DNA of 57,884 nt, counting the filler, from Sphacelaria rigidula (lineage: Eukaryota): assembly GCA_964200075.2 (NCBI GenBank). It is 9 parts of 9 records of this genome, joined end to end, with 100 filler letters (N's around TTAATTAATTAA, not from the genome) between each part and the next. Parts side by side here need not be neighbours in the genome. Positions count along the whole stretch, not along the records: positions 19,330 to 25,672 come from CAXNAA020020652.1; 8 more parts are not named here. One strand, 5' to 3'. Each line of letters starts with the position of its first letter. The stretch's first letter is position 1. The notes beneath the pieces are model-generated. The model made no database searches. It was given only the letters and a program-made list of their open reading frames with translations, and was not told the DNA's origin. Made by a program: the position numbers and the translations under genes. Shown piece by piece: positions 2,221 to 32,519 of this stretch.

Positions 2221-4501
2221 GTAAGTAGAGTACGCACATAAATACACATTATGGGGTAGGCTGGGCCCGGGAAGACGAACATGCTTGGTGTGTCGCATTT
2301 TGCAGCAGCTTCTACACCTCTGTACTCCTTCTGTCTCTGCTGCTGCTTTCTGTACTGCATGTATCGTTCGTCCCGAACTTTGTGGTGGCAGCATCCTGAA
2401 CTGCGTTGGTTCTGTGCCTCCAGAACGCATGACTGCCGTCCTCACCTCCCTTCTTGAAAGCGAGTATAACACATCCACCCACCCTAGGGATCGTGGAGGA
2501 TGCCGTCAGTTTTGGCATGCATGTACATGTACTACAACAGATGACAGTCGAGATATGACATACCCCGTGCATTTTGAATTGGAAAGTGACGATACTGGTT
2601 GAACCACATGAGATATTTGGCGGGAAGCTGCCGGCACAAAATAAGTCCATCCAAAACTCAAGACACTGGTGCCGGGCCAGCCTGGGCTAGCTAGGGGCTA
2701 AAATAGGAGCTGGCCGCTCGTCCCCGCCTTCTCTTGTGCGCGCATACTTCTGCCAATATATGTAAAGCGTGTGGATTGTCCACTCCAAAATTTAGAGTGC
2801 AGGGTATAGTTACTGTGTGCAGTACTGTCAGGTGATGACCAACACCAACCAGGGCTGTCGGGTACTGTATATGGTGTGTTGTGGGATATAACACCCCCTG
2901 GACACGGTGTTTTTAGCCCACTGTCGACGCTGTCGCTCACCAAGATCTTGTGACAGTCTCGAAAGATCACGCATACTTGAGTGGAACTAGCTTTCAGAAA
3001 AACACTATATTTGCACGAGCACGAAACTTTCGGCGGTGTGATGTGGTGTGGTATCCAGCCGCCATGTGGGAAATCGAACATGCAAAGCTGACTAGTGGGG
3101 GTGTTGTACTCAGGCATCTACTTTTTTTCTTCAAAGAAGCGCATAATTGTCGGTGGTACAGTGTGCAGCATAACAGTCCAGTATAACTTCATTATGCATA
3201 CCAAGGGGCTGCCCGAAAACATTGAGCGATCGGAAAATATTTAGTGATACAAAAAGTACATACGTGTGACACTCCGCAACGCGTTGGTTTTCGCGTGTAA
3301 AAACACGAGTGAACAGCACAGTAGTAGAGTACCGTCTGGATCTGTCGTAGGAGTATAGGGTATCTCTCTTCGGTCGGGCGTCAATAACAGCATGGTTTTT
3401 GTCACACACATGAGACACTTTGTACGATAGCCTTCCCCCCCCCAAACCAGCCCAAAGCTGTCACGAAGAAAATGGCCATACAGCGCCTGATGTTCGGTTT
3501 CAGGCTGCATGATGCGCCTCACACGGCCGACATCAGCAACGATTGAACCAAAGCGTGGGAATTCCCAGCTGGTCGTTGTGCTCGGCTTTTTTCATTTCGA
3601 TCACGTGCAGATTTCACCTCTCTAAACCAGCGACTTCGTTGGGGGGGCTGTCGTGAAGAGTGTCATGATTCATTTTTCATTTTTTTATTTTGTTGCCGAA
3701 AATGCCTCGTCCGCCACCATACTGTCATTTTCCATGCATCCATGCATTTATTCAACGATACCGCGATGGAATACCTTATCATGCGGACCATTCATTTTCT
3801 TCTCTACACGCTTTCAAATGCCCCCGTATTTTCGTAAATTACAGATCCCGCGAGTTTCGGGCGTTGCGCTGAACACTTGACTCCCATTTCCCCAGAGCAA
3901 ACTAGAGCACAAAGCGAGTATGAACAATCGTGAGAGACATTAGAATGTACTACATACGTGAGAGGCAAAGCATAGTCGAAGCTCTGGGCAAAAATAAGGG
4001 AGCGTAGTACCAGGGAGGACGGAATTTATTGCTGCTGTGGTGTCCATCGCCTCGTCAGAGCGGACCAGCTCCATGGTCTTGCGAGAGACTGCGTCTCTCG
4101 TGGTACATCGTTTCCTTCTTCACTGAGGGCAATCCACATATTCTTGGGGTCATCGACATTCTGTTACCAAATATATGGCGGGTTCACATTCACCGTCAAC
4201 TAAACACCCCGGCCGAAGTTCAATAACGTGCCGAGAAAAATAGATCAAAATCCCACTTGAGTTGGCTTCAGTACGAACTATACCTAGGTGGCTACACTCC
4301 GAATACTGTTTGTGCTGACATCAAACGCGTACGTTTTCTGCGTTATGTAGGCTCCTTATACAAGAATATATACTTTTTCGAAGTGTGCATGTACTGTACA
4401 GTGATGTACAAGCCGTAAACAACCTGTTGCAAAATAACAGTTTGATCCTGTTGCAAAATAACAGTTTGATGGGAGTACACATTGCACATGTTCATGCATA
4501 C

Positions 4502-4555
4502 CGCGAATGACAACAAAGCGGCGGAAGCTGCACCACCCTGCATATTCCGGAACAT
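4502..4555 (-). pseudogene. Isolated start-codon exon MFRNMQGGAASAALLSFA
   Basis: ATG, 18 codons, GTATGC donor. Confidence 0.35.
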
Positions 4556-5272
4556 GGAAGCGTACTCGACTTCGCTTTTAGTACACAGCCCGCATCCGAC
4601 ACTGACCGCTGTTGTGCTGGCTTTCAAACACGAAAAAGAAATCTGGTCAACAGAGTCTTGAGCTCCAGATAAGTCCATGAACGACGGGATGTCTTCCTCA
4701 AGTTCGCTACACGGAGATGCACCGATAGTGTAGTGAGAGATTCGTAGAGCTTGGATTCGCCGGCAACAGCCACGTGCGGCGAAACCGTCATGGTTACTAT
4801 GTTGCCTCTAGTGAGCGTTTTAGCCGCGTGATGTGTCCTCAAACCCCCGGTACAGAATTGATGATTTCTCCACTCACACTCGAACCGCACCTCATGGGAA
4901 AACTCGACTTCCTGATTGTAGGGAAGACACATACTCACCAGTACACCGACTTTCACCGTAATGTACCCGTTACCGCAAATGAAAGGCGAGGTTAAAGATG
5001 AAAACCATGAGCAGCAACAATCAAATCGTCTTGTGAAGCTAAGAGCACAATCTTGGCCTTAAACTATAATCGCTAGCATACCCTCCCTACTCGTATGTGA
5101 AGTGACAGTAAATCTTACGCAGTGCAGCGTGAGTGTTGTGCAGTCGCGTTCTGGATTGTGTGTTGTGTGTTGTCGTCCCATTTATTCTGGATTGCAATGT
5201 GGAAAATGACTGTTGTATGAGCATGTTTTTTGTATTTTTTTCTGCTAGCGGCTGGGAAATATCGGTCATTAC

Positions 5273-5326
5273 TTCGTGTGCTACGGTAGGTGTAGTTGAG
5301 CTGATTTTCGTCGAGGAGGCACCCAT
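5273..5326 (-). pseudogene. Isolated start-codon exon MGASSTKISSTTPTVAHE (myristoylation-like MG start)
   Basis: ATG, 18 codons, GTAATG donor. Confidence 0.35.
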
Positions 5327-6089
5327 GAACGTGCCTTAAGTTGGAGGCCAACATGACTCGTTTTATGCTTCATCAAGTCTGCTGAGCCCAACGTGTATTG
5401 TTTTCGAGAGGGGTGGTAGAAAACGTGACACTAAATCAGGCGTCACCCTAAAATAAATCGTTATTATCACGCTTTGTTCAGCATTGGCGTTTTCTAACCT
5501 TACCTGTGAAAAAACGTTACCCCACACTACCTGCAACCTTAACCCCAACGAGCCCCGGGTGTACTTTGGTGGGTGGAGCACAATCTGAGCTTTCTTCGTG
5601 AGAGCGCCTAACCCTATGCGTGTCCTGGCCAGAGCCGGTGTGTTTTGGATTGGCGAGACTGTGCATCAGTCCTACGAGCGTCGTAAGAGCGATGTCATAC
5701 TCCAGTTCATGTCGCAAGATGAATCGAACGTTGTACTTCTCTTCGATCGGAACATCCCCAGATATCTTTTTACATTTTCTACGCTGTATTTTCGTTTCAT
5801 TTTGTCGTATCTTTATGAGTAGTTCGAACAAGTATGACTTGAGATTGACGCCTAGCGCATCGAGAATGGCAAGCTCGGTTTTCTGAGTTGTCATTGCATT
5901 GGCCGACCATTCACACACACACACACACACATGCCCCGGCGGTGTGATGGTCTGACGGTCACGACAAGGGTGGAGAGAATGTTGGTCCGATTCCCGATTC
6001 GCCGCGTTTTCTCTTCGAAGTCTCTGATTTCTACGGTCGGAAGCGTGAGTACGTGAGCAAAAGAAATTGATTGACTGAGTGTGTTCAAC

Positions 6090-6215
6090 CAGAGTCGACG
6101 CGGTGCTGGAGTGCTGATAGTCATGATCCAATCCACAAGACCAAGATGCAAGACGTGTACCGAGGGTAGATGGATTGATCCCTATTAATAGAGACCACGG
6201 ACTCGTCCCGAGGAA
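6090..6215. repeat. Dispersed repeat shared with ~10170-10305
   Basis: TCGACGCGGTGC...TAGTCATGATCCAATCC...TTGATCCCT...TCCCGAGGA occurs in contigs 1 and 2. Confidence 0.75.
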
Positions 6216-6343
6216 GAGGAAGGATTTCAAGTGTGACGGGGAAAAAATGTACGTATATGTAAGGAAGGCGTGTGGCTAGAGTAGTCAGAGACCTACGGGG
6301 GAGACTGCCGTCCTGATGCCGAAGGAACTCCGAGGCTGGCGAT

Positions 6344-6443
6344 NNNNNNNNNNNNNNNNNNNNNNNNNNNNNNNNNNNNNNNNNNNNTTAATTAATTAAN
6401 NNNNNNNNNNNNNNNNNNNNNNNNNNNNNNNNNNNNNNNNNNN
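6344..6443. other. Artificial contig linker 44N-TTAATTAATTAA-44N (also at 12787-12886, 19230-19329, 25673-25772, 32116-32215, 38559-38658, 45001-45100, 51443-51542)
   Basis: Identical 100-bp spacer with a six-frame stop core recurs every ~6,443 bp; intervening segments are 6343 or 6342 bp, i.e. size-sorted contigs. Confidence 0.99.
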
Positions 6444-6517
6444 GTTCCGTGCAAGAGAGATATGCCACTTCAGCCTCATATTTTGTATGAACCCCAAAAA
6501 ATAAAATCGGCTGTTTT
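6444..6517. repeat. Repeat shared (inverted) with the end of contig 6 (38490-38558)
   Basis: GTGCAAGAGAGATATGCCACTTCAGCC...AAAATCGGCTGTT is the reverse complement of the contig-6 end. Confidence 0.85.
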
Positions 6518-6709
6518 ACGGTAAAACAACACGCGACAATTCCTGCGTGGATCTCGTATTGCTGGCGTCCAGCCGGCTGGGTGCATGTGAAACAGATGTT
6601 TCTGTAGGTGATATCATACCAATAATTAGTACAGGGCTTGCTGGGGCACGAGGGAAGGGAGTAGCGGTGCGCTGCGACTGCATGACAGGGTTCCCGACGT
6701 TCTCGGCTA

Positions 6710-7164
6710 AACACGGGATTTTACAAATTGGGTACGGTTTTTCATTGAGGATGAAAACCTGGAGAATTAAAATCTTCGCATCCCCACCAAATCTTCGAAA
6801 TATCGTTCCACTCCTCCTTCACCTATACTGGTAGCTGTCGACAACTACAGTAGTACTACACGCCGTACAAATTTTGATCCTGATAACCGACATGTTAGGG
6901 TCCTAGGTGAATGAAGAAACGATTTTGCGAAATGATCTGATCGGATCATCAAAATTCCCCAAAACTGTTTCTTTGCCTAAAAGCCCAACATGTCGGTTAT
7001 CGGGATCCAAATTTGTATGGCGTGTAGTACTGTAGTTGTCAATGACTACCAGTAGGTGAAGGAATGGAATTATATTTCGATTTGGTGTGTATACAAAGAT
7101 TTTAATTCTCCGGGTTCTCATCCTCAATAAAAAAATCCGTCCCCAATTTGTGAAATGCCGTGTT
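6710..7164. mobile_element. Foldback MITE family A (AACACGGGAT...ATCCCGTGTT), copy 1
   Basis: ~190-bp imperfect terminal inverted repeats around a short core; homologous to 15114-15556, 50814-51261 and 54723-55139. Confidence 0.9.
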
Positions 7165-7349
7165 TCTAGTCCATACCCGCCTACAACAGGTCGGGAGGGA
7201 CGTCTCTAGAAAAAAAGATATCCAGGAAAAAAATAACTGCAAAATCCTGTACACCTCTGGATTTCCCGTCTAGGGTACTCGGTGGATTTTAGAAGCTCTG
7301 TTGTGCCCATGGGCTCTACGAGGCGAGACTGTGTTTTCTTTTAGATACA

Positions 7350-7711
7350 TGTGTGTTGTGTGTGTTGTCGTCCCATCTATTCTGGACACCAGTCTACACC
7401 TTTTTTTGGTATATGTCGGCGCACCAGTCGGGGTCACACAGGACGAAGGTCAAAACAAGAGGTTTTTCTTTTTTACTTGTTTTTAGTACCCCACCTTCCT
7501 TCTGCGGTGCTTGCCTTCCCTTTTCATCGCAAGAGGGGTTCAACAATCCCTTTCCCTCGTCGACCGTGAAGTCGCCTTTTGTGTACCCACGACAGAGCCA
7601 CTCTCCACTGTCAGGCATGGTGTGAAACAATCTCAGATCGCTACGAGAATTGAACCCACTACCCAACCGTCGGAAGTTATCGAGGTTAACAACTGAGCCA
7701 CCGGGGCGACC
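7350..7711 (-). mobile_element. Near full-length tRNA-derived SINE
   Basis: Minus-strand head GGTCGCCCCGGTGGCTCAGTTG (A box)...GGGTTCAATTC (B box); body shared with 1151-1363; CA-rich tail. Confidence 0.8.
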
Positions 7712-9724
7712 GAAACAGATATTTGCGCAGCACGTATCCCGAGTTGAAGTTCCTGAGGAATGATCGACGGAAACGCTGTCTCTGGCGGGTTTTTCCAGTT
7801 CTGCACATCTGATCGAAAAAGTATATTTCGGGGGCAAAAATGTGAAGATATACTTTCCCTAGACTGAAGCCTCACAAACTTTGCGCATGTTGTTGCTCCT
7901 GAGCGCCGCAAACACGGGTTTGATCTCCTCCTTCATTATGGTCAGCTCTTACCAAACATCGTTTCCCCTCCTCCGTAAAACCCCCACCAGGAAGGCTTCA
8001 CCACACCAGACCGACCAACGGTGCAACAGAGAAAGAAAAAAGGCAATAAAAGATAGATCCGCTCGTCCCTCCTTAACAAATAGTATCGACTCAAACACTC
8101 AGGACCTGCCCCCCCCCCCCCGCCCCCCTCCGAAAAAACAAACACAAGCACAACACAAGAACCTTGCGTGGCACGGCACCCTACTGCTGTCATATGCGCC
8201 GCTTGTTGAAATGCTCCCTGTCCATCCGTCTATGACGTATAAATTTCCGCTTTCCATACTGCCCAGCCCGCAACGTCGACCGCAAGATGAAGAGTTTGCG
8301 CGCTGACGTTAACCAAGCATCCACCATCTCAACCGCCAAGGCTGCCCCGTGCAAGAAGGTCGCGCTTATGACCAGCCGTCATGATTACCATACATTCCTG
8401 TATATATAATGAATAATCCGAGTGTCCCATGTACTAAAAAAACTCATCACTTGACCATCAACAGATGAAAAATCGGTCGTATATCTTGCCCAAATACATC
8501 ACGCCAATACAACAGTACATGATCTATGGGATCGGTCAGGACCGATAGGGCTGGAACATGACACAGACGTGGTACTGTAAGGTACGATACAGTTGTCCGG
8601 TACAGCACACCCCCCAGAAGACTCCTAGCGGGAAAAGCGGAGCGAAGGAGGGAAGAAAATAATAGAATAACAAACCTCACAACCAGAAAACAAAAAACCT
8701 TATGCAAGCAACGAAACATGATAATATGTATGATACAGTCAGCAGTGCGTGACTTCTGTCATGCGCAGTCCTCGACCGTTCTGATTTTATGAAATTGATG
8801 GTCCTGTTCGCAACATGCAATCCCTTCCTGTCCCCACACTAACTGCGCAACTCCCCACCTAAAAATTGTATCCTATACGCTATCCAATCGTGGAGGTCAT
8901 GCAGTCAGCAGTTAAGCCATGGCCAAGTCGTAGCAGAGAGAAGGAAGCAAAATATCGTCCTCCTCATGCTATCCAAGTCAGAGGGGGGGGGAAACATGCA
9001 CCAAAAGCAACGACCAAGGGCATGCACAGCAGAATGGCGACTCGTGTCTGCCACCAACAAAACCAAAATCACGTGACGGAGGGGCGCGCGCGTCCAACAA
9101 GCAAACAAAGACAAGCAAAGGCAAGCAAGGAAGCATACGTCGACATCCTACCGACCTGAGCGCAGCGCTAGCTACCCTAACAACTTTAAAAGATACTTGC
9201 CGAGGACCAATCGAAACCCCCCGTATCACTTCACAAAACGTCCCACCACTAAAAATCAATGCAGATACGCATGACCAGACGTGTCGATACTTCCCAACAC
9301 GACCACTAATACAGAAAACGCACTACCATCTTGCCCCCTCCCTCCCCCTTCCGTCTAATTGACACCGTCGTCGTTTCTATTTCGCTTGATGCCCACGCTT
9401 CTCTTGTAGGTGAGTATTTCTTGTGGAGTTATGCGGTCCGGCGCCCAGTTGGCGCTGCTGCCTCGCCGCTGGTATCTGCTCTTCTTTATCTGGGGGAAGA
9501 AGGAAAAATATATATGCAACAACAAAAAACGATACGCATGGGTACTGTCAAAACCCACGCATGCATGCGTTCGATACTTCGTGCCCATAGATCTGCCACA
9601 ACAGCATTCACTGATGTCGATAGCAGAATATTCGGTCCGCGGTGCTATCCACGATATGTGAAGAGACATACCCTAATCGATCGGCACATACCGATCATAC
9701 ATGAACGGCAATTTAGCAAGGTTG

Positions 9725-9961
9725 CAAGGTTGTACTCTGTTTAGACAGGGTACACCCGGAAGTGGGGGATCTTTGGTTAGTATACCAAGCCATACCGGAA
9801 GGTGTACTGAACATTCTGGTATGGTCTGGCAGGACATCGAGCCCTGTTCCGAACAATCCAGTACGGTTTGGAAGGGTATTCAAAGATAAGATACGTATTC
9901 TATACTTGTCTAAATACCCAGTGTTTAGCCGGTAAAATAAACCCTACAGAACACAACCTTG
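9725..9961. mobile_element. MITE with CAAGGTTGT...ACAACCTTG termini
   Basis: 16-bp imperfect TIR CAAGGTTGTACTCTGT / ACAGAACACAACCTTG. Confidence 0.65.
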
Positions 9962-12900
9962 CATTTGAATTAGTACTCACCTTCCCGCGGGGTCTGAATT
10001 AAAAGGGTACAACTAAAAACAGTTAACGCGAAAGAGGTACACTTAGCGCCCAAGAGTGGGAGTTCGATTTCCGGGAGGCGCATTTGGGTCTTTTTCTGAG
10101 GAGTAAAAGTATCTGATTTTCGTGGTTGAAACTGCGGGAATACGAGTAGCGAGCAACTTTTGCTTGACGAGAATCGACGCGGTGCGGGAATACTGTTAGT
10201 CATGATCCAATCCGAGATACCGAAAATGTAAGGCGTGGATCGCGGATACAGTAGATGAGTTGATCCCTTTAGACTAGTGGACTACAGTACATACTCATCC
10301 CGAGGAGGGGGGGGGGGGGATGAAAGTTTTGAGGCCGCTTCTTATGATCCAAGAAAGACTGCAAAAAATCGGGCGACGATCTCTTCCCGACAGCCTTTCC
10401 TCGACGGAAACATTTCCCAAAAACGTCCATTGAAATTCCGGGGAGCGGTCCCGCGGATTGTACACCTAAATTGGGGGGCCCGCCCGCATGACACTTGCTA
10501 TCACACATCTGGGCAAGAAGCAGCGGCTGCTGGACTGTCCTTCGTCTACAGCTACGGACTGTCTGCACTGCCCTGATCCGTGCTTGCATGTACTTTACAG
10601 TGCTGTCTTTGCTGATGTTTTGCATGTGCCGCACGGTATGCAGTACGGTAGCCCTGTGAGTATTGTACAGCTGTCCGTTACAGCGGTGTGTACCGTCTGT
10701 ACTGTTGCACAGCAGCACTTGATGCAATGTTTGCGGCACCGTACACTGTGTATGCTGTCTGTACAGGAGCTTGTTCCGCATTTGATGGAGGGCGCGTTGT
10801 GGACAAACCCTTTCCCCGACAAAATTGATCTCTTCGGAACGGTCTACGTTACTCGACAACAAGGATGAGAAAAGCATCTCTTTGGCAGAAACTCCGGACT
10901 CGGGAAAAATTTCCCCCCAAAGAAGGTGTCACAAGAAAGGGTTTCAGAGACATTATCTGAAAGAATAAAAATATATGTCCAGAGGACTTTTTAGGACTAA
11001 AAGAAACGGTCTGACAAAAAAAAATGTTGAGAAATACCATGATGATGACCATACACAACCTCGTCCCTCACGAAGAAAAAGGAAAGTATACTCGAATAAA
11101 ACAAAATCTTGATGGAAATAAGTAGTACGTACGTTACACACGACAACAACAACCAGCTACGATGAGGATGTACATGTTCACGGAAAATAACGTTGATCTT
11201 GCAGCGCCCAGTCGTGGAGGGGACCTTTCGATGGCCTGGCTATGTTGGGAAGTACGAAATAGCTGTTCTGATTTAATACAAAAAACCTACACAGGATCGG
11301 GGGGGTCTGAGTCCGCTGGGTCGTTGTCACGCACACAAGCGTGTCATCATCGGTAAAGCGAGTACAAAACAGAGTACGGAGTAATCTCCGCAGAATACGG
11401 GGGTGTTGCGGATGCGGGTAATGTGCTGACGGGACCTTCCGTAAATACAGTTCCGAGAGCCATGCTGTGTGCTGCAGACGTCCCGAAAACTCCAACCGAC
11501 CCGCTCAGCCATGGATACAGATTCTACACTTGTCATACTCCAAAGCATAATATTCGTAATTATGTCTGATGTCACGCCCAAGGGCCATAAAAGGGCCATG
11601 CGCACAGAATCATCATACTCCAAATATCCACGGGACAGTCAGGTCTCATTATTGGAACAAAAGGCCTTGATAACCCCGAGAGTTCAATCAATCAGAAAAA
11701 TAAAACGAAATTGTTTTTAAAAAGCAGCTCACATGGAATATCGCCTCGAGATCGCAGGTCACCACCTCGGGGAAGATCGTGTCGGGATCTTGTTTGTCAT
11801 CGCCCGTATACTGCCGGTTCAAGGCCTCGGTCAGAGCAGATCCCTTCGCCCACGACGGGATCTACGGCACGGGACGTAAAACACGATACGGCGGGGGGGG
11901 GGGGGGGTACTGAACACTTCCGGGGTCGTCAAGGCCAAAGTCCTTCGGGCCCAATTCTGGCTTGAATCGAGAAAAAATATATAGTGCAACAGGAAATTTG
12001 GTGGAGACGCCCCAGGTAACTTCTGCGAATCAAAAACCTCATTTCGCTGAAAATTGACCATTTTCTATTCGAATCACCGATTCGGGGTGTTCGAATTTTG
12101 TCATCAAGAAAGCCAAGTCAAAAATCGCATCTCCGCTGTCGAGTTAGAGGGGGTAAGGAAAAGTTTCGGCGGGATCGGGTGAAGGTCGGCTTCGCAAACT
12201 TGAAATGAAGTTTCGGCACTTGAACCGACAGGTCCTGACCAATGCATTCGAATTCAGACCAACTTGCGGGCTGCTGTTGCCCCACTTTTGCATCGGATGT
12301 TACAATACGTTCAGGACTCCAGAAAGTGTCGAAAAATTAGTGCACATCACATTCAACCATAGAGAAAATTCTTCAAAGCATTGGTGAAGTCTCATATGGA
12401 GGTTGGGCCCATGTTTTTTCCAGGGGCAGCAAACTAGCCGTGGCCGGGGGTGATGTCTGACCGTTTTGGCCTGCCAATAAAAGTGAACGGTGGCGCCCCA
12501 CTCTATCCTGGGGGTACATTGGAAGGGTGTCGAATATATTGATGATACCTCTCATCGTGAGGTTAGAAGCATCATGTAGTCCGCTCGCCACTGGCTAATA
12601 CGTCAAATACCACCCCCTCCGGATGAGGATATTTCGAGGAGATATGCCCATCGCTTCGTCGGGGAAGGAGGCCAAGGGTGGTATCAAATCAGCACGTAAG
12701 GTGTAGGCGTTCTGGTGGACACTCGCGTGCCCGTGTAAAAACTCACTCGTCTTCAACAGGCCCTGATGATATATTTCAACCCTAGCNNNNNNNNNNNNNN
12801 NNNNNNNNNNNNNNNNNNNNNNNNNNNNNNTTAATTAATTAANNNNNNNNNNNNNNNNNNNNNNNNNNNNNNNNNNNNNNNNNNNNCCCCCCAACTGGCG

Positions 12901-15575: not shown

Positions 15576-18500
15576 ATGTCGCACAGAAATAACGCTGGCT
15601 CTTCCCCTCAATGGGGAAACCAATCGCTTCGCCGGACTCGGAGCCAGACTACTAGCGCTTCGAAATCTTTCAAGATGAGCGGCACGCCACCTTCAACACA
15701 TCGCCGCACGTATGCGAGCGCTGTTCGTTCTTCGGGATCTGAAGACCAACCTTCGAGCGAAGCTCAATCTTCAAGGCTTGAAGGCCAGACTTTGACGCCG
15801 ACACCTGTTCTCTTACGTTCCGACCCGGATTCAGAGAACATGGTAGTGCAACCGGCCGAGTCATTGGTTCCTGACGCGCGTGTCAGTGAGCCCATAACGG
15901 TGGATTCCGTCGCACACCCCTCGCTGGCCCCTGCTCTCCCGAATCCCATTGTGGAATCCGGAGTTAGGATTGTGCCCTCAGTCGAGTCGTTACCCCTGGA
16001 CACACGTGTCCAGCTCGGCCCTGTCACGGCTGCTTCAACCGTGGCACCCCGTTGCTTGACGGCTGACAACTCTTGAGACGATTCTGTCCCGACGAAGCGC
16101 ATTGCTTCTGGAGCAAGAGACTTTGCCACACGGGCTGCTTCTGTTACGGACCCCTTTCGCACGACTCTTGATATTTCCATGCGCCCTCCTGTGCAGTCCA
16201 ATGTCGGACCTGCAGTTGCGGCCATGCATGCTGCCATGCAAAATCTGCATCGCATCTCCTCGGCGTCGTCGCCATCGCCATCGCCAGCGCCAGCCCTCAT
16301 CGAGGCATTGACGGCTTTTTGCCACGCAACACTCCAAGACCAACCGGCGTCTGCTCATGTGCAATTCAATGATGATTCTGCACCTGCCACGCCCAAACCC
16401 GTACGTCTGGCGACCCGTTCGGCGACACCGCGTCCTCCGTTCGTTACCCATGATAAATTCAACGAACATGAGTCCAGCCCTTCCTCAACGTCGCAGCAGA
16501 GCCATACTCGCGCTTCTGACCGGCGCCGCACACCGAGACTTGGTCATGACGATGTCTCCCATTCTAGCAGTTCTAAGGGCCACTCCCAGCAAAGCTTGAG
16601 TTCATCGCGCGCTTCCACACGCTCGAAGAATATCGCTCATGGACAAAAATATGACGGTAGTTCACGCCATAGTTCCAATTTATCTCGCGCTCCAAAGCGC
16701 CGGGTGAAAGCTAACCATGGCCGTACTCACGAGGATGCCTTGCGGCCCAGATCAAGTTCTTCGCGCGTTAAGTCGCGCTCGAACAACTCCGATCATGCAC
16801 CTTCGCGCATCTCTAATGCTCAGCCTTTGTCACACAACCGTCATTTACGCAATGATAACACTGTACATACTGACGATATCCAAAAAATATTTTCGGACAT
16901 GTCACCGGCTCCGGAATCCTCAATTTCAGGATCCGACCGCAACTCATCGCACAACCGACGACAACGCACTGACCGCCAACCACCGTCTCGTTCCGACGCT
17001 GTGCTTATTCCTTCTCTGCAACAACGTTTGACAGATCTTGAACGACAACTCGCAACAGCAACCATGGACACCAAGTGCACTACCGCTGCTGCTAAGCCTA
17101 CCAGGGAGACCACCAACGCCGCTCCCACTACCGCCCCAGCCGCCACTACCGTGGTCACTGCGCCTTCTGCCGCAGCCACTGCAGCCACGGCCCCAACTCC
17201 TGCTGCCGCCCAGCCTGCAGTAGACACAGATGCGGATAGTGGTCCCACCACTGGCCCTGTGGGGGATGTCTCCGTGCGCTTGCCTCCTTCGGTGAAGGAT
17301 CTTCCTCCGCTCGGCGGCGAGCATTGCCCCACCGGGCTTCTCTTGAGACTATTCCAGGACCGCCCCCGCGCGGAACAAGAACAGCTCATTCATGACTATG
17401 CGTACCAAGCCCCAGCGCTAGCTCGCAACATACTAGACTAGCAACGCAATCCTGACGAGGCTGCCGCCCGCCTTCGTTTGGAGGAACATGCTGCCAAGCA
17501 GAAGAATTTTCAGCGACAGGCTTCACTCGCCCAAGCTACCAAGACGGCGGCGCACAGGGCATTGCAGGAAGGGCAGACTGCAGCCTTGACGGCACAAAGG
17601 AGGGTTCGCGAGCTACAAGATCATGTTCGGCGCACTACGCAAGAAGCCGATTCGTCGATGGCGCGGGTGACTCACCATCAAGCCTCGCCGCCCCCTTCCG
17701 CCGATCACTTGCTTGAAGCTCGACCTCCTCGACAGCCTACGCCCGCCTGGTCCGACTACGAGATACCACGTAAGTCCGACAGGGCGTCATCTGTCGCGGC
17801 CGCCGCCGCCCCCACCCGCCTCGTGCACCTGGCCCGGCGGTCACTGCCAGCCCCACCACACGCTTGCAACTTGCATCACACGAACGAGTGTGGCTTTCTC
17901 GGTCTGCGGCCGATTATACTGACCCCTTTCACCGAAACAATCACTTGCACTGTTCCCGCCACGCTTGGAACACCATATCCCAACGCATGTTAGCCGTAAT
18001 TGGTGGCTACGTGGAACAGGGCGGCTTCTTCCCGGACGCTGGCGTGTCGGCAATCACCTTGGGCCAACTGGTCCTCCAGGCGACAATCGGCGATAGTCCG
18101 CATCTCCACCAGTACGTCGACACTGTCACCCAACCGTTTTGCGGCGCTACGCGCCGCTTCTAACCCTGATCCCGCCGCGACTCTCCCCGACGATGACGAA
18201 GATGAGGACGGGTGGATCACCACGCGTCCAATTGCCGGGGTCACAAGAAGAATCACCGTCGCGATGACGATGACAACAATGGCGGGAATTCACGCCGCCG
18301 CCATGGCTGTGGAGGATCCTCTTCGGGCGGTTCCGGACCAAACCGCTCGCCCCGCAAGCCGAAAGGCAAGCACACCGGAGACAACTCTTCCGGATCGTCC
18401 GCATCGGTCTGGAACCGGTCCGGTACAGCTCTTCCCGCCTCGGGCTCGGAGACCCCCAGGCAAGTGGTTCCTAAGTTGGCTGATGTTTCGGCCCGCATTT

Positions 18501-19157
18501 TAGGTTTGCCCGAGACGGATACACCTGACCGTCCTTTGTCTTCTACTGCAGCCCGCGCCTTAGCAACGGCTGCGGCTGACAAAGAGCGTTCCGAAGCTAG
18601 AAAAAAAGCAGCTTCCGATAGAGCTGAGTCTGCCCGAGTAGCTGCAATACAGAGACAGGATATTCAGATGGATGTGAAAAAACTCTGGCACATCAACACC
18701 ATGCCTGCCGCGGATAACGAAGATTCGGGCCAGTTTACTTCTGCCCTCATCACGTCCATCTGCCGCACTGTTTGTAACATCCTTCACTTGGCGGATGTGA
18801 CTGGCACACAACGTTTCGAAGATTCCGCCTGGGTAGAGGGCTGGCAGACTCCCTTGCATAAAACACTGCATCGATCGATCAGCCGCCGCTCTCCCGACCT
18901 CGCTGCTTCTTTGACGCAGGTTCTTGACGGATTGCTCGCCGAGATGGACCCGGATCGTGCCAAGGTGAAGACAGGCCCGGTATTACTCTCTGATTTGGAG
19001 AGGCGTCTGATCGGTTACTTCGATAAAAGTGACAAGGCTAGTGCCATCCAGAGGCTGAGTTCCTTTGTTGTCGCCTCTGATGTCCCTTTCGCGGACTATC
19101 TCCGGGAATTTAAGCTTTTAGTTTCGGGTACGACGGGAGTCGGACGTCAGAACGGAC
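15576..19157 (+). pseudogene. Decayed gag-like ORF1 of a retroelement (~1,190 codons)
   Basis: ORFs 15552, 16179 and 17478 share one frame, split by single stops (16074, 17439). After one frameshift near 17830-17860, ORFs 17864 and 18212 share a frame (stop 18161). Ser/Pro/Arg-rich start, coiled coil, then a capsid-like segment (AIQRLSSF...FADYLREFKLLV). Intronless; cut by an insertion at 19158. Confidence 0.55.
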
Positions 19158-19229
19158 GAGTCATCCTACGATAGAGGGGGGGGTATTTTGGGCCATTTGT
19201 TGCTCGAAATTTCGAGTGAGAGCGTCGTT
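19158..19229 (+). mobile_element. Terminus of a repeat family beginning GAGTCATCCTAC (second copy 51345-51442)
   Basis: GAGTCATCCTAC(G/A)ATAG-polyG-TATTTTGGGC...CGAAATTTCG ends both contigs 3 and 8; homology starts sharply at GAG. Confidence 0.75.
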
Positions 19230-19329
19230 NNNNNNNNNNNNNNNNNNNNNNNNNNNNNNNNNNNNNNNNNNNNTTAATTAATTAANNNNNNNNNNNNNNN
19301 NNNNNNNNNNNNNNNNNNNNNNNNNNNNN

Positions 19330-19876
19330 CGCTTCCACGAGACATCAACGGGACCCGACTAGATCGCATCCTCCACGGTTCCTACGTTGCCCCTGCTCCC
19401 ACACACGCTGATTTGTTCCACACACTCACCGCTCAGCTCGTTTCCGGCGAGGTTGAGATGCTCCAGGTTCCCAAGCTGCCCGAGGAACGATGGGACATCG
19501 CCTGCACGGTGTTCGAAAGGAGCGTGGACCAAAATCAGATCGTGTTTCCCACCGTCCCTACAACTTTTGTCACGTCTACGCACGGGCGGGACGCGCTTCC
19601 ACGAGACATCAACGGGACCCGACTAGATCGCATCCTCCACAGTTCCTACGTTGCCCCTGCTCCCACACACGCTGATTTGTTCCACACACTCACCGCTCAG
19701 CCGGTTGGAGCTGAGGTTGAGATGCTCCAGGTTCCCAAGCTGCCCTAGGGACGATGGAACATCGCCTGCACGGTGTTGGAAAGGAGGGTGGACCAAATCA
19801 GATCGTGTTTCCCACCGTCCCTACAACTTTGTCACGTCTACGCACGGGCGGGACGCGCTTCCACGAGACATCAACG
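19330..19876. repeat. Tandem 264-bp repeat (72-nt LRR exon + 192-nt intron), just over 2 copies, running off the contig start
   Basis: CGCTTCCACGAGACATCAACG occurs three times at 262-264 bp spacing. Confidence 0.95.
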
Positions 19877-22800
19877 CGACCGCAGTTGGCTTAGTTCGTG
19901 AGGGTTTCAACGTCACCTTTGCTTGTACTAATACGGTGAGTTTTGTTTCCGGGAGTAGCCAATAAAAACGTACACCCCGGGGATCTCGGGAAGTAAAAAG
20001 GAAAGGCATGTCACGTCTCGGGGCGCTCTGTTGCAGGCGCGCTGATTACTTCGAAAACACGTCTAGCGCCCCAGCCCCAAGTGTGTAAGGGAAAGGATCT
20101 CAGACGGGCCATTTGGACAAGAGATCCTGTTTTCCCTTCTGCTCAACATAGATCAACCGTGTAAACTCCACCCGAGCTGCCCTCTCCCACCCGGAAATGC
20201 GATCTCAAGAATGCTCCCAACGAGTTCAAAACGGGAGGGTAAGACCGTATCCTGGGTTCCTCCATATCTCATTACTTCCAACTATAGCACAATCCGTCAC
20301 CGCAAACGATATACGGTACTCGTGAAGGTGTCATCAATCTGCATCGCATGTACCCGAATCAATCTACGCACACAGGCACTAGTGTTCAGGTCGGCAATAT
20401 TCAAGTCAAAGCGACGCTCAAGGTGTCTGGGCAGCATGCCGGACCATTAGTTTTCGTGTTCACGAATGCCACGCGGCTGAACCATGATGTCGAAAATGAG
20501 TGCCTTTCGGAGTATCGGTTTTTGTCAACCACAAAAGGCCGCGACCCAACCACCAACTTGGCCCGTGTACCCGGAAGATCGAACGATGAATACGGAGCGC
20601 TTGCGTGCCGGAGCAAAAGGATCCGACGAACGTGTGTGAACGTTTTGCCGACGCATGGGGTGACACAGCAGACTGTTGCGGGACTCGACAACAAGCATTT
20701 CGTTGAGAGACGACCAAGTCCAGGGGAAGATGACTGCTTTTCCTAGATTTGACCGTTTTTGACCGTTCTCCTCGGATACAAATGCAATTGTGCCAAAAGA
20801 TATTCGTGCACCGTCTTAAAGAGTACAGTAAGTCATTCCAGGACGTGAAACGAAGAAGTAGGACCAACGAGGCATTTTCACAGCATGTTCTTGTTTGTGT
20901 GCCAGAGGGAGCGACCCAAGACGACTCTCACGAAATGCAGTGCCGTACACTTCAATGGCCTTGTTGCTGCTCTACAGTAGTCCATTTCTGCCGGAGACTA
21001 GCTCTCTGCCACCTTGCAAGGCATGCACACTGAGACATGTGGCAGCCTACCTAGCGTGTACCTCTTTCAGCCAAAGAATATGGTGTCTTCGGATGGCTCC
21101 GACACTTGCCATGTATTTCAAACGATTCATTGACAAAGCTACTACAGTAAGCGGATCAGGTCTCGTACAGGGAGTTTCGGAATTGAAAGAAGTCATTCAT
21201 TGATTCCCAATCGTATCTTTTTCTCAAGGGGCTCCACCTTGGGACGTGACGGCACCAGGGCCCCCCATATCGCCGAAATGGTCCTTCGTACACACTACTT
21301 GATGCTGTACCTGCTGCACGACCTTGATGCTGTACTGTACTGACTGTACTGCTGCACTGACCACCGATCGAGCCGCCACTCTTCATCTTTACCAGCTCTA
21401 CCAGGCACCAGCTACCGCTTAAATCAAAACGTCGAAGCGATAGGGCGCAACCATAGCGTCACAAATCTATCGTGGCTCGTGGCGTTCGGTATCGTTCTCG
21501 AAACAGACCGATCACTGTCGCAAGACAGTATAGTAGATGTTGCACAATGGGAGTTCAACCACTAGCTTCTGCAGCAGACAGAACGTCCAACGACAAGAAT
21601 GCTGTTCGGGGCTCCACACTTCGGCCGAACAAAATCAACAAGGCTCTTTCGCAAGCAGAGTGCTGAGGAAATGAAAGAGAGCTGGATGGGCGTGATGGGC
21701 TCGGGGGAGGGATTGCAAAGGCGGTAGAGACCACCGACTGCAAACATGCTGAATCCTGGAACAAAAAGCATGGACCTCTGCGTACGTTGGATGAAACGTA
21801 TCATCTAATTCAACCGCGCTACTGGTGATGTAGCTTGGATCTACTGCGAATTGGTGCACAGGGATTGATTTTGTGAAGTAGAAAAATTTCAAGAGTGGGA
21901 CGATGAGTTTGACGATTTTGGGAACTTATCGGGCCGGATCACGAGCGAAATTTGCATCAAAGATCAGTAATTCGAAATTAAGAGGACTGATCGAGCGCTA
22001 TTTTTATTTGGTAGTTGATAGATGGTCGACACTCTCACATAACACATGACGGCTGGAAACACCGCTGGATCAGAACTGACACATAATACCACACACACAC
22101 TCAGACGAACACACACCGAATCCACTGAAGTGGGGTACTAATAGCTGGGAAAAACGCTCATACGAAATGACATGTCATAATCCCAAATTTTCGGCACGCA
22201 AAAAGGCGTGTGCCGCACCAGCAGATATGCACTGCAACCACTACATAAGGTAGACCTTGAATGACAGAATGATCTCTTATTCAAGGATAGATCCAACCGT
22301 TTTACCGTGATAAAACAAGGAAAGCGCAGCCGCGCTTCCCCGTCCTCCGAGGTGCCCTCGAAAGTTGCTTTTCAGGGTCGAGACCATCACGTATTCGTCT
22401 CACGACACACGACCTAGCTACCCGTCCGTAGAACGGTCGTACGTACATGTTTTGACCCAACACCCTGAACCAGGTGTAGTCAGCCGAGCTGTTTCAACCT
22501 CGTCTACAGCCACCTTGGTTGTTGCCCGCCCTGCTCTTGGGTTGTAACGTTGTCGGTGCTGCAGTCAGAAAATAAGCCATTTTCAACACCATTCGGGTCA
22601 ATATCATAGGATGCCTTCAATCGGGTAATATAACGCTCCCGCGGTGGTTGCCCGGCACATCCCGGCGGTTCAAAATCCTGCACATCCATTTTCGGCGGCC
22701 TACGAACCGCTTCGAAAAGATTTCTTTCGTTAGGCAAGCCGATTCACCTCTGGAGACGCAATGATGTCAATGAGAAACGCCGCGGCTATGGCGACATGCC

Positions 22801-25524
22801 GTCGCGTAAAACCGCTGGGATATACTCCAGAACGCAGTAGTCCTTCACCACCTGTTTCCTGTTGTGCGACTGATCACGTGTAGTTGTTTCGGAGTGATCG
22901 TTCCGCCATACTTGCCCACCACCCACCAACGACCTCACACCTGGGGCCTGCCCCACCGGTCGTTTCGGGTGTCCGGTCCCTCGCAGGCTGGAAATGCGGT
23001 AGTTGAGTCCGAAGTATGGCAAAACGTATGCCCGTGCTACAGGTAGAAGATCCTCAGATACGGTATTTGATGTGCAATCTTGTTTTCGTTATACATCATT
23101 CCAGCCTTGTGGAACATCCAACGGATTTGTGACCCACACGAACACGAAGGGCACGACTTGCGAGTACCTACTCGCAGGCTCCACCTCCAAGACGTCACTA
23201 AAGAGAGCTCTGTCGATCAGTTTACAGGGAAGTTGTTGAAAACGGCGCCCTACAGGACCATTGTTGATGAAGTAGCTGTTTACAGTTACATCAAACTGTT
23301 GGAAAAGAGGCGATCCATTACACATTCCTCGCACACCGCACCAGCGGTGGTACAGTCAGTGATCCATTACCCTTTCCTCGCATATAAGTTTAGTATAGTC
23401 AGTACAACTGTAGTTACGTGAGCGGTACCAAACAGCCGTCAGCTGAAGGAGTAATTGATACGTTTGTCGTTTCGACCCTTATTGCTGGAGTAAAAGTCTA
23501 CTGTTGTCCACGAAATCACGTGTAAACGTTCACCACAGGTCACCACAGGTGGCGCAAGCACGGGATGGTGCTGATGCCTCCATCATCACCTGTACACTAG
23601 ATGATGGTCATGGGTGTATGAACACCCAGGAATTGGTCACGAACTTTGAGCAGGATGTTTTCACGAACAAGGCGGGGCTTTTCTCTAGGAAACATCACTG
23701 CGTTAAGTTTTCCGCCCGATCCTCCAAGTAACTTTCAGACTATATGAAGCGGCCTGAGAGCTCTCGACGAGTCCACACGTCTTAGCTGGAGCCGCAAGAA
23801 TGTCACGGATATGACCACCCGCCAGCGATTTCCCCGTCCAACTCCCAAGTCCCAACCTCGCTTTCATGATGTAACAATCTATTTACCTACGGTGACGGCG
23901 GGACACATGCCTGCTTTTCCGACCTACATTGTAAGAATGTTCCTCGCTGTTCGAATTTGTGGACTCACAATGTGACTCGTTACAGAGGGCGTTCCCCGAG
24001 GGTACGATGGTTGATGTCCGGCAGGTATGTAAGTCAACCCTTGGATGGCCACAGTCGGTCATCCATCGAATCGACATCAGTTTTACTTCCAAAGGGTAGG
24101 CACGATCCAGATGAAATACCCTCACAGTCCATGAGTTAACACAACGGTTGTCTTGTCGAAATTCGGACAAAATGGTTCAGATTTGCCTACGCCTCAACAC
24201 CACCAATCGGCGTGCTTGCCTACAAACCGAAACCGTCGGAACACTTTCTAGCATAAATCTGCCTAGTTCAATACGCACCGGTAAGCTTGTTTTTGTTCAG
24301 CTTCAGCACTTTCAGCTCGTCGAGATCCCCAAGCGCCTCGGGGATGGATCCTGCACAACAAGGAAGAAAGCAGTGGTGAGCATTTTCGACGCAAGCTGAA
24401 TGCTCTTACAAGAAATGACCTGCGATCGTGAGTAGGCCACTTCATATTCTAGGGGCGTAGGTGGCACACGTACGGCACATCTCAATGAAAAACCGTAACT
24501 AATATTGAAAAGACTCACCAGTCAGAGGGAATGAATCTGCTACAACCGAAGATACACCAGGAGTAGAGACTTGCGTGAAATGAAAATCGTTTTCAATACC
24601 ATACACGCGCGAGAAACACTCAAGCTTATCCGAAATGAGCGATCCGAAAAGTACTATTCGCTATTCGATGTTGTTGACTCACCATTCAACTTGTTGTCGC
24701 TGAGGTCGAGGTGCTCCAAGGCCTTGAGATGGCCCAGTTGCGATGGGATGCATCCTGCCGACATGCAAGTCAACACAGGGGTGGTGCAGTCAAAAATACC
24801 AAACATAGGTTGTGTCAATGTCTGTGAGGTCGAGGCGCTCCACGGCGCTGAGATTTCCCAGTTGCATTCGAACGTATCCGACAGACATGCACGTCAACAC
24901 CATGGTACTGCTGTCGGATCCACGGACGATCGGTTGTGTCCCGCCTACGCCTCCAGACCGCCAATTCATCACCACTCACCGGTGAGCTTGTTGTCGTACA
25001 GCTTCAGCACCTTCAGCTCGTCGAGATCCCCGAGCGACTCAGGGATGGGTCCTTAACAAGGAAAAGACGAAATGAGTAGTCAATTGATGACATGTTGCAC
25101 GAAGTGATCTGCAACGGTCAGTATGTTACTTCATATTGTGCAAGTGTAGGCGGGACATGTAGGGTATATCTCCACGAAAAACCGAGAACATTTTACTTCT
25201 AAACCTACGGTAGGAAAGACGTGCCTCAACCCAGGGGATACAACCTGCTGAATCAAAGACGTGCAACTTCATAAAATATTCGATTTCGGTCAACGCACGG
25301 GTGGGGGAGGTCGAGCACTCCACAGGAGAGCATCACGTCCATGTCCATAGGGTAGCCCTTGATATACCTTCAAGGTTGCGGTTGCTCAGATCTAGCTCAA
25401 CCACGCGGCCTTGGTCGTTGACTTTCACCCCATGCCAATCCGAGAGATCGGTATCCGTGTCCCAGTCATACCATTTGATCCCGCCGACCAGACCAAGTAG
25501 TAGGTCACGATCCGTCGGGGCCAT
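19430..25524 (-). CDS. Brown-algal LRR protein (ROCO/LRR-receptor-like N-terminus), 3' incomplete; exons 25368-25524, 24980-25051, 24683-24754, 24279-24350, 19694-19765, 19430-19501
   Basis: Exon 1 is an LRR N-cap (MAPTDRDLLLGL...WDTDTDLSDWHGVKVNDQGRVVELDLSNRNLEG). Five 72-nt phase-1 exons with AG/GT sites each encode one 24-aa LRR: GPIPESLGDLDELKVLKLYDNKLT, GCIPSQLGHLKALEHLDLSDNKLN, GSIPEALGDLDELKVLKLNKNKLT, GDVPSSLGQLGNLEHLNLSSNRLS, GDVPSFLGQLGNLEHLNLAGNELS. Confidence 0.88.
22504..23334 (-). pseudogene. Unidentified intronless decayed ORF inside the long LRR-gene intron
   Basis: ORFs 23089-23334, 22786-23022 and 22504-22737 are in one frame, with 3 internal stops over ~277 codons. Confidence 0.35.
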
Positions 25525-27565
25525 TGCAGAGGACACCTGTGGGGCGCAGAGAGAGAAGGAAGTTGCGGGCAAACGGATAATGCCTGGTATGGCAGCAACA
25601 ACAATAGCATGAACTGAGGAGATTTACACATAGACTTTGCCATTCCACCCAACGACGCAACAACGGTCTGCCNNNNNNNNNNNNNNNNNNNNNNNNNNNN
25701 NNNNNNNNNNNNNNNNTTAATTAATTAANNNNNNNNNNNNNNNNNNNNNNNNNNNNNNNNNNNNNNNNNNNNAAAGCGAATGATCAAAGCCACTCTCAAT
25801 CGTATCATCTACTCTCAATCTCACGAAAACACTGTTATAGCTGGTTTGGGAGTGCACGAAACACTGCAGTTTCGAACATGTGGGCGTCATAGCTGGTGTA
25901 GGACTGTAAGGCGCGTCCTGAACTGGCGATACTGGCGAAAATGACAATAGGCGCGACACCCCCCATGTACTCGGTGCGCGCGGCTTATCTTACTTTGACG
26001 CTTTTTGTGCTGTCCGAAGGTTGGCGATTCGTCATGCGGGCGATGTTCGAGCCGGAGGCACTCAGTTCCCCCTCCTGGGTAGAAGCATGTTCGAGATTCT
26101 GAGGCACTTGCGCGATACAACGCCTCATGTTTGGTTTCAGCCTGCATGAAGCGCCTCATAGAGACGCACTTGGCAACACCGAACCCGGGCCCCGACGGCA
26201 ACTCCCGGCTGCTAGGTATCCTCGGCTTCCTACCTTTCCATTGACGTGCATATTTTGGACTCACCAATCAGCCTTTGGTTTGCGAGGGGCTATCGTTGGA
26301 AGTTCTCTGGGACGACGGCATTATTCTTCATCCACGTGAGTTAGTTTAGCAGCGACTACAGAAGTTGCAACGGAGAATTAATGCTTCATTATATTTGTAA
26401 GAGACAAATCACTATCTCGGCGTCGCCATGGATGCGCATGCAGGACGCCTACCGCTGAATACCTTTCCGTCAATCCATGCAGGGCTCCACGTACACAAAG
26501 AAATCAATAACAACAATGGGGTACCTATTCAAGCCAAGTGGGGGGAAAAAATGTCGCCTTGCGTCGTTTGTCTTCGAGTAGTACCTTGTTAGTGATACGA
26601 TACTACTGCGCAGGTGATATGACCAGACGTTGCGTGATGCGGCGCTACTCTTGGCAACAAAGTCGTCGGCAAAGGCAAAAATACCCGCGCGTTTGTCTCG
26701 AGACATGTACCAACACAACATGCATCGCCTCCCGCTACTTTAGCGGCATCATCAGCTTATACTACTCAGCAGTGCGCCCGGAACCACCCCGAGTCGTGCG
26801 TCGTGTTTCCGAATCTGCTTTGGTGCTCCTCCACTTCCCCGCAGATTCAGCGGTTTTGGGGAATGTCTCTCCAATATCTCGAACCAAGCCGAGTAGGGAT
26901 CCATCCCCTTGCCCGGGGAAATATATGTACCAACTCGATACCTCGTGCTCGAATTCCGAATGAGACAGCCCCGATGCACCCGTTTTGTGTCGCGGCGTGG
27001 TCCAGTATGGGGCGAAGACATAGGCCGTCTGGAAGCCGTATCCATGATTTTGGACGGGTTTGTTCACTCGGAGGCTGCGGGTGAGCGGATGTCCGCGCCT
27101 TACCTCCGTATCGTTGTCATCACCTTCCTCATGCAGGCCCGAAACGAGTGTCTTTCACACGTCGGTTTCTTTACTAGGGATGCGATTGTGACACATCTGC
27201 GTCCGAACTTCTCGTAGAACAGCGTGAATCTTCTCCTGAACAGTGCAGAAAACTTTGCGGGACGCCGACGGAGAGCACTTACAATTTAGGTCCACGACTG
27301 TTGGCGACCGGAGGTACTCATTTGAAACACAGGAATTCACTCGTGGATACCAGCGCGCACATCTCGCCCACGACATGGTCCCGATCCCGCAAACCAGATA
27401 TGTGCCCACTTAAAGAACGCTTGCCGATTGTCCGGCCACCGGCAATCATAGAAACGCGAGCAGTAACATCATGTACGGATTTCGAATGGAACGGGTGATG
27501 CAACTCTTCATACTTCGCAAAGAGAATTTCTACATTAGCCCCTCCCCCCCTCCCCGGTACGGCTA

Positions 27566-32068: not shown

Positions 32069-32519
32069 ACCCCACCCACCACACCACAACCACACAACCC
32101 ACCCCCACGCCAGGANNNNNNNNNNNNNNNNNNNNNNNNNNNNNNNNNNNNNNNNNNNNTTAATTAATTAANNNNNNNNNNNNNNNNNNNNNNNNNNNNN
32201 NNNNNNNNNNNNNNNAGGGAAAAAGTCGGGGGCCGACAAAAAAAAGGACCCCCCCCCCCCCCCCCCCCCTCCCCCCCACCTCCCATTTTTTCACCTTGGT
32301 TACGTCTATCGTGTGACCCGGCATTCGTTGGCGGATCAATTCCTATGTGACTTTGAAGTCAATCAGCATGATGGTCGGCTTTGAGTTTGGAATATTGCAC
32401 CATGTGTTTTGACCTTGTAGGATGCTCTTGTACTTACTCCAATATTTTATCTTCATATGTTCATGCCGCGTACATCGATAGACCTGGTAAACCAACGCAT
32501 CACGAACGACAACGAACAG

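Follow-up and report, generated by a model that had tools for sequence, protein, structure and literature searches.

Two near-identical leucine-rich repeat exon cassettes in Sphacelaria rigidula differ mainly in one 11-nt patch

A stretch of Sphacelaria rigidula DNA (assembly GCA_964200075.2; 57,884 bases, hereafter the window) contains two neighbouring 72-nt exons, A and B, each encoding one leucine-rich repeat (LRR) and each repeated together with its intron in a 264-nt unit. The introns of the two units are almost identical, and most of the exon differences are gathered in a single 11-nt patch that encodes residues of the predicted ligand-facing side. The identity of A and B as LRR exon cassettes of the brown-algal type is well supported by their sequence, and the locus is a local example of an exon-cassette system already described in brown algae. 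We lean towards the explanation that A and B, situated in the LRR domain of a receptor-like gene of the brown-algal type, are neighbours in a homogenised array and belong to a genome-wide family of 264-nt exon-plus-intron cassettes. Gene conversion or unequal crossing-over would have maintained the likeness of the units, and the patch would have been acquired by exchange.

Structure of the two cassettes

The window consists of nine pieces of approximately 6343 bases each, and adjoining pieces are not necessarily neighbours in the genome. The cassette pair lies right at the beginning of the fourth piece (19330–25672, record CAXNAA020020652.1), where the coding sense is the minus strand. The following features were annotated, including loose ends of contigs from X5, one of the public sequencing runs described below.

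19430..19501 (-), cassette exon A: 72 nt, AG/GT borders, encodes (G)DVPSFLGQLGNLEHLNLAGNELS; loose X5 contig ends at 19429 and 19502
19694..19765 (-), cassette exon B, upstream of A: 72 nt, AG/GT borders, encodes (G)DVPSSLGQLGNLEHLNLSSNRLS; loose X5 contig ends at 19693 and 19766
19502..19693 (-), GT-AG intron between B and A: 192 nt, making up the 264-nt repeat unit together with one exon
19330..19429 (-), donor-side intron past exon A, cut by the edge of the excerpt; counterpart at 19594–19693
19766..19881 (-), acceptor-side repeat segment upstream of exon B; 19881 is the end of the repeat
19438..19448 (-), divergent 11-nt patch of exon A, exon bases 54–64, codons GCC GGA aac GAG
19702..19712 (-), divergent 11-nt patch of exon B, codons AGC TCC aac CGG

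The type I LRR exon of Ectocarpus was described by Zambounis et al. (2012; PMC3341825) as a 72-nt exon with the motif GxxPxxLxxxxxLxxLxLxxNxLx, and Teng et al. (2024; PMC11378527) confirmed this type in four brown algae, bases 3–71 coding for 23 residues, and added alternative splicing. The preliminary description of this DNA had proposed one-LRR-per-exon cassettes of the Ectocarpus kind, and the length, the motif and the reading frame agreed with it: bases 3–71 of both A and B form the codons of 23 residues, the phase is symmetric at both ends, and exon A, written as G-DVP-SF-L-GQLGN-L-EH-L-N-L-AG-N-E-L-S, matches the type I motif at every fixed position. The start-to-start spacing of the units is 264 nt; with the intron counted in, their likeness over 290 nt is 94.5%. 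No further copy of the intron repeat was found in the other eight pieces of the window. The supposition that the contig begins inside the repeat, from which a collapsed assembly had been deduced, did not hold, since position 19330 is the edge of a fixed-length excerpt and gives no evidence of assembly collapse.

A conserved intronic RNA was considered as well and found unsupported, the predicted fold of the 19502..19693 intron being no better than that of shuffled sequences (z=+0.78) and the piece having no Rfam match at E up to 1. Scanning of the unit for bacterial promoters and terminators gave 0 sites, as expected in a eukaryote. The plus strand carries an antisense frame at 19332–19748, which is open for 139 codons across exon and intron, the unit length of 264 nt being a multiple of three; we regard this frame, which has no Pfam match, as a by-product rather than a gene.

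Distribution of the differences between the units

Exons A and B differ at 10 of their 72 bases (8, 16, 20, 54, 55, 57, 58, 59, 63 and 64), seven of which fall in the codons AGC/GCC, TCC/GGA and CGG/GAG; the recount agreed exactly with the numbers given in the preliminary description. The TCC/GGA codon differs at all three bases, and within LxLxxNxL it is the xx and x residues that the patch specifies. The introns likewise proved to be nearly identical: one substitution was counted in 100 bases on the donor side, while the acceptor side showed three in 116 aligned bases (at −114, which is the repeat edge, −22 and −13) and one-base indels at −67 and −33, giving a total of four substitutions and two one-base indels in 216 aligned bases.

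The excess of exon over intron differences (10/72 vs 4/216) was significant in the Fisher test (p=2.3e-4), and so was the clustering of multi-base changes claimed earlier: seven of the 10 exon differences lie within one 12-nt window (permutation p=0.0016), and the maximum chi-square block over the 288-column unit was formed by exon bases 45–64 with 7 of the 14 substitutions, a value reached by none of 2000 permutations. Comparison of the patch (7/11) with the rest of the unit (7/277) gave p=3.4e-8 (Fisher), whereas the exon outside the patch (3/61) was indistinguishable from the intron (4/216; p=0.18). The excess divergence is thus narrow, confined to one 11-nt patch, and the exon is not hypervariable as a whole. 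The 'hypervariable surface codons' of the preliminary description proved right as to a real excess, but with two copies, a pairwise dN/dS of 0.78 and the excess restricted to the patch, hypervariability in the wider sense was not supported.

At the protein level, the two cassettes differ at positions 6, 19, 20 and 22 of the 24-residue repeat and are identical at positions 15 and 17. Zambounis et al. reported positive selection at sites 15, 17, 19 and 20 on the concave face, so two of the four differing residues (19 and 20) coincide with published positively selected sites. Under a Poisson model with the intron divergence of 4/216, the probability of at least seven changes in 11 nt was 2.4e-9 for neutral evolution, 5e-3 for omega 10 and 0.12 for omega 20.

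A short inverted repeat was also observed around the patch of exon B (19696–19715, minus strand), where the L17–S18 codons (CTCAGC) pair without mismatch, as reverse complement, with GCTGAG from the conserved L22–S23 codons. It is a perfect 6-bp repeat in exon B and matches at 4 of 6 positions at the same place in exon A, which may be due to chance.

Upstream exons of the same gene

The remainder of the piece contains further exons of the gene, all of them upstream of A and B; these exons and the inactivated remnant share the strand and the phase of the cassettes.

25368..25524 (-), first coding exon, MAPTDRDLLL...WHGVKVNDQGRVVELDLSNRNLE(G); GT donor at 25367, phase as in the LRR exons
24980..25051 (-), LRR exon E1, PIPESLGDLDELKVLKLYDNKLT; older duplicate of E3
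24807..24878 (-), inactivated 72-nt LRR remnant in the E1–E2 intron, YVRMQLGNLSAVERLDLTDIDTT; without AG acceptor and without GT donor
24683..24754 (-), LRR exon E2, CIPSQLGHLKALEHLDLSDNKLN
24279..24350 (-), LRR exon E3, SIPEALGDLDELKVLKLNKNKLT
19882..24278 (-), putative long intron between E3 and cassette B, 4.4 kb, containing short dispersed repeats

All five exons (E1, E2, E3, B and A) are 72 nt long and have AG/GT borders. Inactivated intronic LRRs, together with traceable intra- and intergenic recombination, were reported from Ectocarpus LRR domains (Zambounis et al., 2012), and the remnant at 24807–24878 is an 'inactivated exon' as these authors use the term. No LRR-like frame was found in the 4.4-kb spacer between E3 and B, where Pfam searches with 15 open reading frames (ORFs) returned nothing below E=0.045 and nothing at the curated cut-off, and no LRR exon was detected on the non-coding strand of the 6.3-kb piece.

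E1 and E3 offered a second pair for comparison. Their exons are alike at 63 of 72 bases with a dN/dS of 0.36, their upstream introns are about 70% alike (the alignment was judged by eye) and the downstream introns could not be aligned; the residue differences include the xx positions of LxLxxNxL (YD vs NK). This is the ordinary pattern, by contrast with which the A/B pair stands out.

Besides ROCO genes (LRR-ROC-COR GTPases), five LRR-kinases and 46 other loci carry type I exons (Zambounis et al., 2012), therefore the exon type does not decide ROCO membership; since the piece ends at 19330 within the LRR array, any ROC-COR part would lie outside the view. We therefore classify the gene by its type I LRR exon cassettes, without assigning it to the ROCO genes.

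Family size and splicing in public sequencing runs

About half of the sampled words of the piece were present in nine public runs from three studies, which bear the labels 'organism A' or 'algae metagenome'. Logan contigs of four of these runs (X1, X3, X8 and X5) were aligned to 19330–20600 at a likeness of at least 85%. X1, X3 and X8 behave like DNA, while the RNA nature of X5 is a guess of the tool. Summed word depth, which is not to be read as a copy number, was compared between the 13 cassette bins (19330–19888) and the six flank bins (19889–20146), as follows.

X1: cassette bins 14,897–78,514; flank bins 205–1,301
X3: cassette bins 2,342–11,618; flank bins 57–210
X8: cassette bins 1.87–10,646 (12 of 13 bins at least 619); flank bins 64–116

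In the DNA-like runs, the intron depth was about equal to the exon depth. The idea that a transposable element in the intron had produced the high depth was abandoned, as the depth of X1 and X3 summed over the two units was about even between exon and intron. The unit was split into short contigs of 70–250 nt in the public runs, and at the exon site 19455 another letter was carried by 28 different contigs in X1, 21 in X3 and 11 in X8. These data suggest that the whole unit, intron included, is a member of a many-copy family of at least tens of copies. Joints in register with the repeat were found at 19877>19352 (X1 and X3) and 19881>19632 (X8); the contig piece listed beside the former had 15 other letters out of 116 in each of the two runs, thus these contigs may be paralogues.

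The X5 contigs were of a different kind. A joint at 19500>19693 (cut +1), present in two contigs, removes exactly 19502–19693, and the loose contig ends coincided with the four exon borders: 19429 (25 contigs), 19502 (50), 19693 (15) and 19766 (1). The depth of exon-containing bins was 21,150–596,771 vs 859–5,119 in pure intron bins. The loose letters preceding 19429 resemble, in the sense direction, the beginning of another exon of the same type, and in the single contig running past 19766, 29 of the 30 loose letters shown matched positions 24280–24309 of the window in a by-eye comparison, so that in this contig a B-like exon appears to be spliced to an E3-like exon. The X5 contigs support the exon borders and the gene model for the family, not for the exact locus. 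The expectation of the preliminary description that more cassettes exist was thus supported, both by the many different contigs on the unit and by the RNA-like contigs leading from an A-like exon into another one.

Several observations concerned the 4.4-kb intron itself. The summed contig depth in its short stretches 20147–20189 and 20319–20447 was 10- to 100-fold above the surroundings, and many contigs of X1, X3 and X8 ended at 20404, 20414 and 20448; these stretches are probably a small dispersed repeat. In X5, one contig of 1523 nt with a depth of 1072 covered 19847–20600 with 57 other letters and 24 gap letters, thus a copy related to this stretch is abundant in the X5 sample and is possibly transcribed.

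Relatives in protein and nucleotide searches

A full HMMER search with the plus-strand ORF gave four hits (P0021, P0022, P0023 and P0024), of which P0022 and P0024, both long repeat proteins, were judged spurious from their sequence and rejected. P0021 and P0023 are short ORFs from Logan assemblies, each alone in its own cluster, and have the same antisense frame. Compared with the antisense translation of the unit, P0021 was identical at 17 of 33 positions in the donor-side intron and 13 of 24 in the exon, while the values for P0023 were 13/32 in the donor-side intron, 10/24 in the exon and 8/26 in the acceptor-side intron. Cassettes with related introns thus exist in other sequence sets.

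P0021, P0023 and the plus-strand ORF returned nothing meaningful in Pfam. When the sense ORF over unit A was compared with longer proteins by a word-index search, only generic plant LRR proteins and unnamed ENA records were found, the best having 68% identity over 31% of the query. The same type of search gave no hit among 40 candidates for the first-exon peptide and none among 47 candidates for the plus-strand ORF at near lengths, and two exact 20-nt intron patterns had 0 matches each in metagenome_contigs.

Comparison with known LRR and repeat systems

The cassettes share with the brown-algal type I exons the length of 72 nt, the 23 residues encoded by bases 3–71, the motif, the one-LRR-per-exon organisation and the splice sites, as well as the variation at concave-face positions 19 and 20 and the presence of a dead LRR remnant in an intron, here at 24807–24878 on the coding strand. 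They differ from the described type I exons in that the intron is part of the repeat at approximately 98% identity and the divergence is limited to an 11-nt patch; moreover, the inactivated or intronic LRR exons of the described system often lie on the non-coding strand, where this piece has no LRR exon. The words 'gene conversion', 'conversion' and 'unequal' are absent from the main text of Zambounis et al. (PMC3341825), and neither a homogenised intron at about 98% nor divergence confined to an 11-nt patch was seen in those parts of the literature that were consulted.

Another point of comparison is provided by the repeats with high internal conservation (HIC) of fungal NLRs, such as the WD40 repeats of Podospora HNWD, which are 80–100% identical with few hypervariable ligand-facing positions and for which unequal crossing-over between misaligned repeats was proposed as the cause (PMC13449251, 2026). 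The same source likened brown-algal receptors to HIC repeats, calling them 'weak HIC'. At the nucleotide level the present units fall within the 80–100% range (94.5% over 290 nt; 62/72 for the exons alone). However, the fungal WD40, ANK and TPR repeats lie inside one exon, while here each repeat has its own exon and the homogenised unit extends over the intron as well; the likeness drawn here concerns repeat identity, not repeat-number polymorphism or an NLR architecture. In the group III LRR genes of the ciliate Tetrahymena, tandem intragenic units likewise consist of one LRR exon and one intron recognisable at the nucleotide level, and unequal crossing-over was proposed for their expansion (PMC6564038). 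In Tetrahymena the exon measures 90 bp and its intron about 257 bp, unlike those found here, and group III genes are associated with the REP non-LTR retrotransposon, an association not seen at this locus.

The variable lymphocyte receptors (VLRs) of jawless fishes, discussed in PMC3341825, also combine LRR cassettes, variable concave-face residues and many potential donors. Unlike the VLR cassettes, which are copied somatically into an incomplete germline gene, A and B are normal exons with intact splice sites, joined by splicing. Donor cassettes of the VLR kind are devoid of splice sites, whereas the A and B borders are AG/GT, and exons of this type are spliced at these borders in the X5 contigs.

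Other features of the window

The pieces are joined by linkers of the form N44-TTAATTAATTAA-N44, located at the following positions.

6344–6443
12787–12886
19230–19329
25673–25772
32116–32215
38559–38658
45001–45100
51443–51542

A gap of 10 N at 34364–34373 is separate from these linkers. Pfam searches with 13 long ORFs from elsewhere in the window gave matches to RVT_1 and ALOG only: the ORF at 41551–42345 (+) matched RVT_1 (E=6.5e-7) and that at 44033–44875 (+) the ALOG domain (E=3.1e-6), both slightly above the Pfam cut-off, and the two are probably retroelement parts in the seventh piece. The third piece has open frames at 16077–17441 (+; 454 codons) and 18206–19174 (+; 322 codons), neither of which has a Pfam match.

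Origin of the patch

The explanation we lean towards would work as follows. Misaligned repeats would undergo unequal crossing-over and gene conversion, a concerted evolution that would maintain the likeness of the units, introns included, and the near-identical intron flanks would supply the homology for such exchanges. The patch would have come from another member of the family, with which a stretch was exchanged, and not by seven separate point mutations; this stretch is not necessarily short, and provided that the donor was otherwise identical, it would measure at least 11 nt and at most about 104 nt, exon base 20 and intron position +53 being the closest differences on either side. The patch may then have been retained by selection for different ligand-facing residues. 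The protein product would be a solenoid, the concave face of which varies from repeat to repeat and the exon number of which can change without breaking the frame. The patch most likely originated by exchange between cassettes, although this is not demonstrated, and exchange is the more economical reading because seven changes in 11 nt are improbable at the intron divergence even if omega is 10. A small inversion or a template switch was also considered and dropped, as no convincing inverted match could be found by eye.

Several points weigh against this explanation. The comparison involved the two visible units only and no donor was found for either patch. The Nei–Gojobori estimates for A vs B (pS=0.170, pN=0.136) give a ratio of 0.78, thus selection on the patch is not demonstrated by this pair. 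In the distant P0021 and P0023, intron and exon have diverged about equally, and the intron near-identity therefore reads, on these comparisons, as a trait of recent copies, owing to recent homogenisation or duplication, and not of the family over long times. Variation spread evenly over exon and intron, which the preliminary description had named as the result that would speak against it, was absent from the A/B pair but did appear, weakly, in these two sequences, as seen in a translated antisense frame. As regards the depth data, summed contig depth is no copy number and the flank, too, has variant contigs deeper than the exact ones. None of the X1 and X3 contigs counted at 19455 and 19719 carried the letter of the window, which had depth in X8 at 19719 only and in X5 at both sites; exactly these two exons are not confirmed in X1, X3 and X8 at sites 19455/19719. 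The X5 spliced contigs are alike to the locus at the 85% threshold only and may be paralogues.

A recent tandem duplication followed by point mutations fixed at the three surface codons by strong diversifying selection, with no exchange involved, would explain the coincidence of residues 19 and 20 with published positively selected sites, the differences of the older E1/E3 pair at the same two positions and the intactness of the LRR scaffold residues under all changes of the patch. However, an omega of about 20 or more would be needed for 7 of 11 changes at 4/216, the TCC/GGA codon has changed at all three of its bases, and the pairwise ratio stays at 0.78, which make this course of events unlikely. 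It is less likely still, in our estimate, that the pattern is an artefact of assembly or polishing, either because multi-mapping reads pulled the introns to the family consensus or because the units are a chimera of loci. The unit seems to be high-copy and is represented by short contigs in the public runs, and the missing window letter in X1 and X3 would fit such an artefact; nevertheless, two private one-base indels and four intron substitutions persisted, so no full flattening occurred, both exons are intact, in frame and correctly bordered by splice sites, and the letter of the window does have depth in X5 (19455 and 19719) and X8 (19719).

We gave the same low credence to the possibility that the gene is under remodelling and that the cassettes, as exons in decay or out of use, evolve near neutrality, in which case the patch would be a functionless relic of an old mosaic. 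A dN/dS near 1, the dead LRR remnant in the same gene, the parallel divergence of exon and intron in distant copies and the 4.4-kb gap between the cassettes and E3 are all consistent with decay, but both exons have kept the open frame, all scaffold residues and the AG/GT borders, and the X5 spliced contigs use the exon borders, one of them joining a B-like to an E3-like exon. It is very unlikely that the introns are the homology arms of a conversion system moving short ligand-face patches among hundreds of LRR cassettes, possibly somatically as well. We regard as least probable of all a programmed, possibly somatic diversification, in which a dedicated process, comparable to VLR assembly in lampreys or to immunoglobulin gene conversion in the chicken, would copy short stretches from donor cassettes into expressed exons, guided by the conserved introns. 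Only the overall pattern, in which the flanks are conserved, one patch varies and potential donors are numerous, recalls such a process; nothing in these data speaks in favour of the targeted diversification that the preliminary description had offered as one option. Somatic recombination was hypothesised for Ectocarpus by Zambounis et al. (2012), but somatic recombinant ROCO loci and site-specific recombinases were not reported in brown algae according to Teng et al. (2024), and the cassettes are ordinary spliceable exons.

Significance for brown-algal receptors

[quoted passage not shown] (2024; PMC11378527). The present locus does not answer this question, but it is a clean case in which a single 11-nt replacement is visible between near-identical units. 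Short-read assembly probably misrepresents arrays of this kind. The intron flanks seem to be conserved enough for shared primer or capture sites, which would make it practical to sequence the repertoire of cassettes from different tissues, individuals and clonal lines; owing to this conservation, a single primer pair could read all of it. If the introns did act as homology arms, the receptor repertoire would change faster than point mutation allows.

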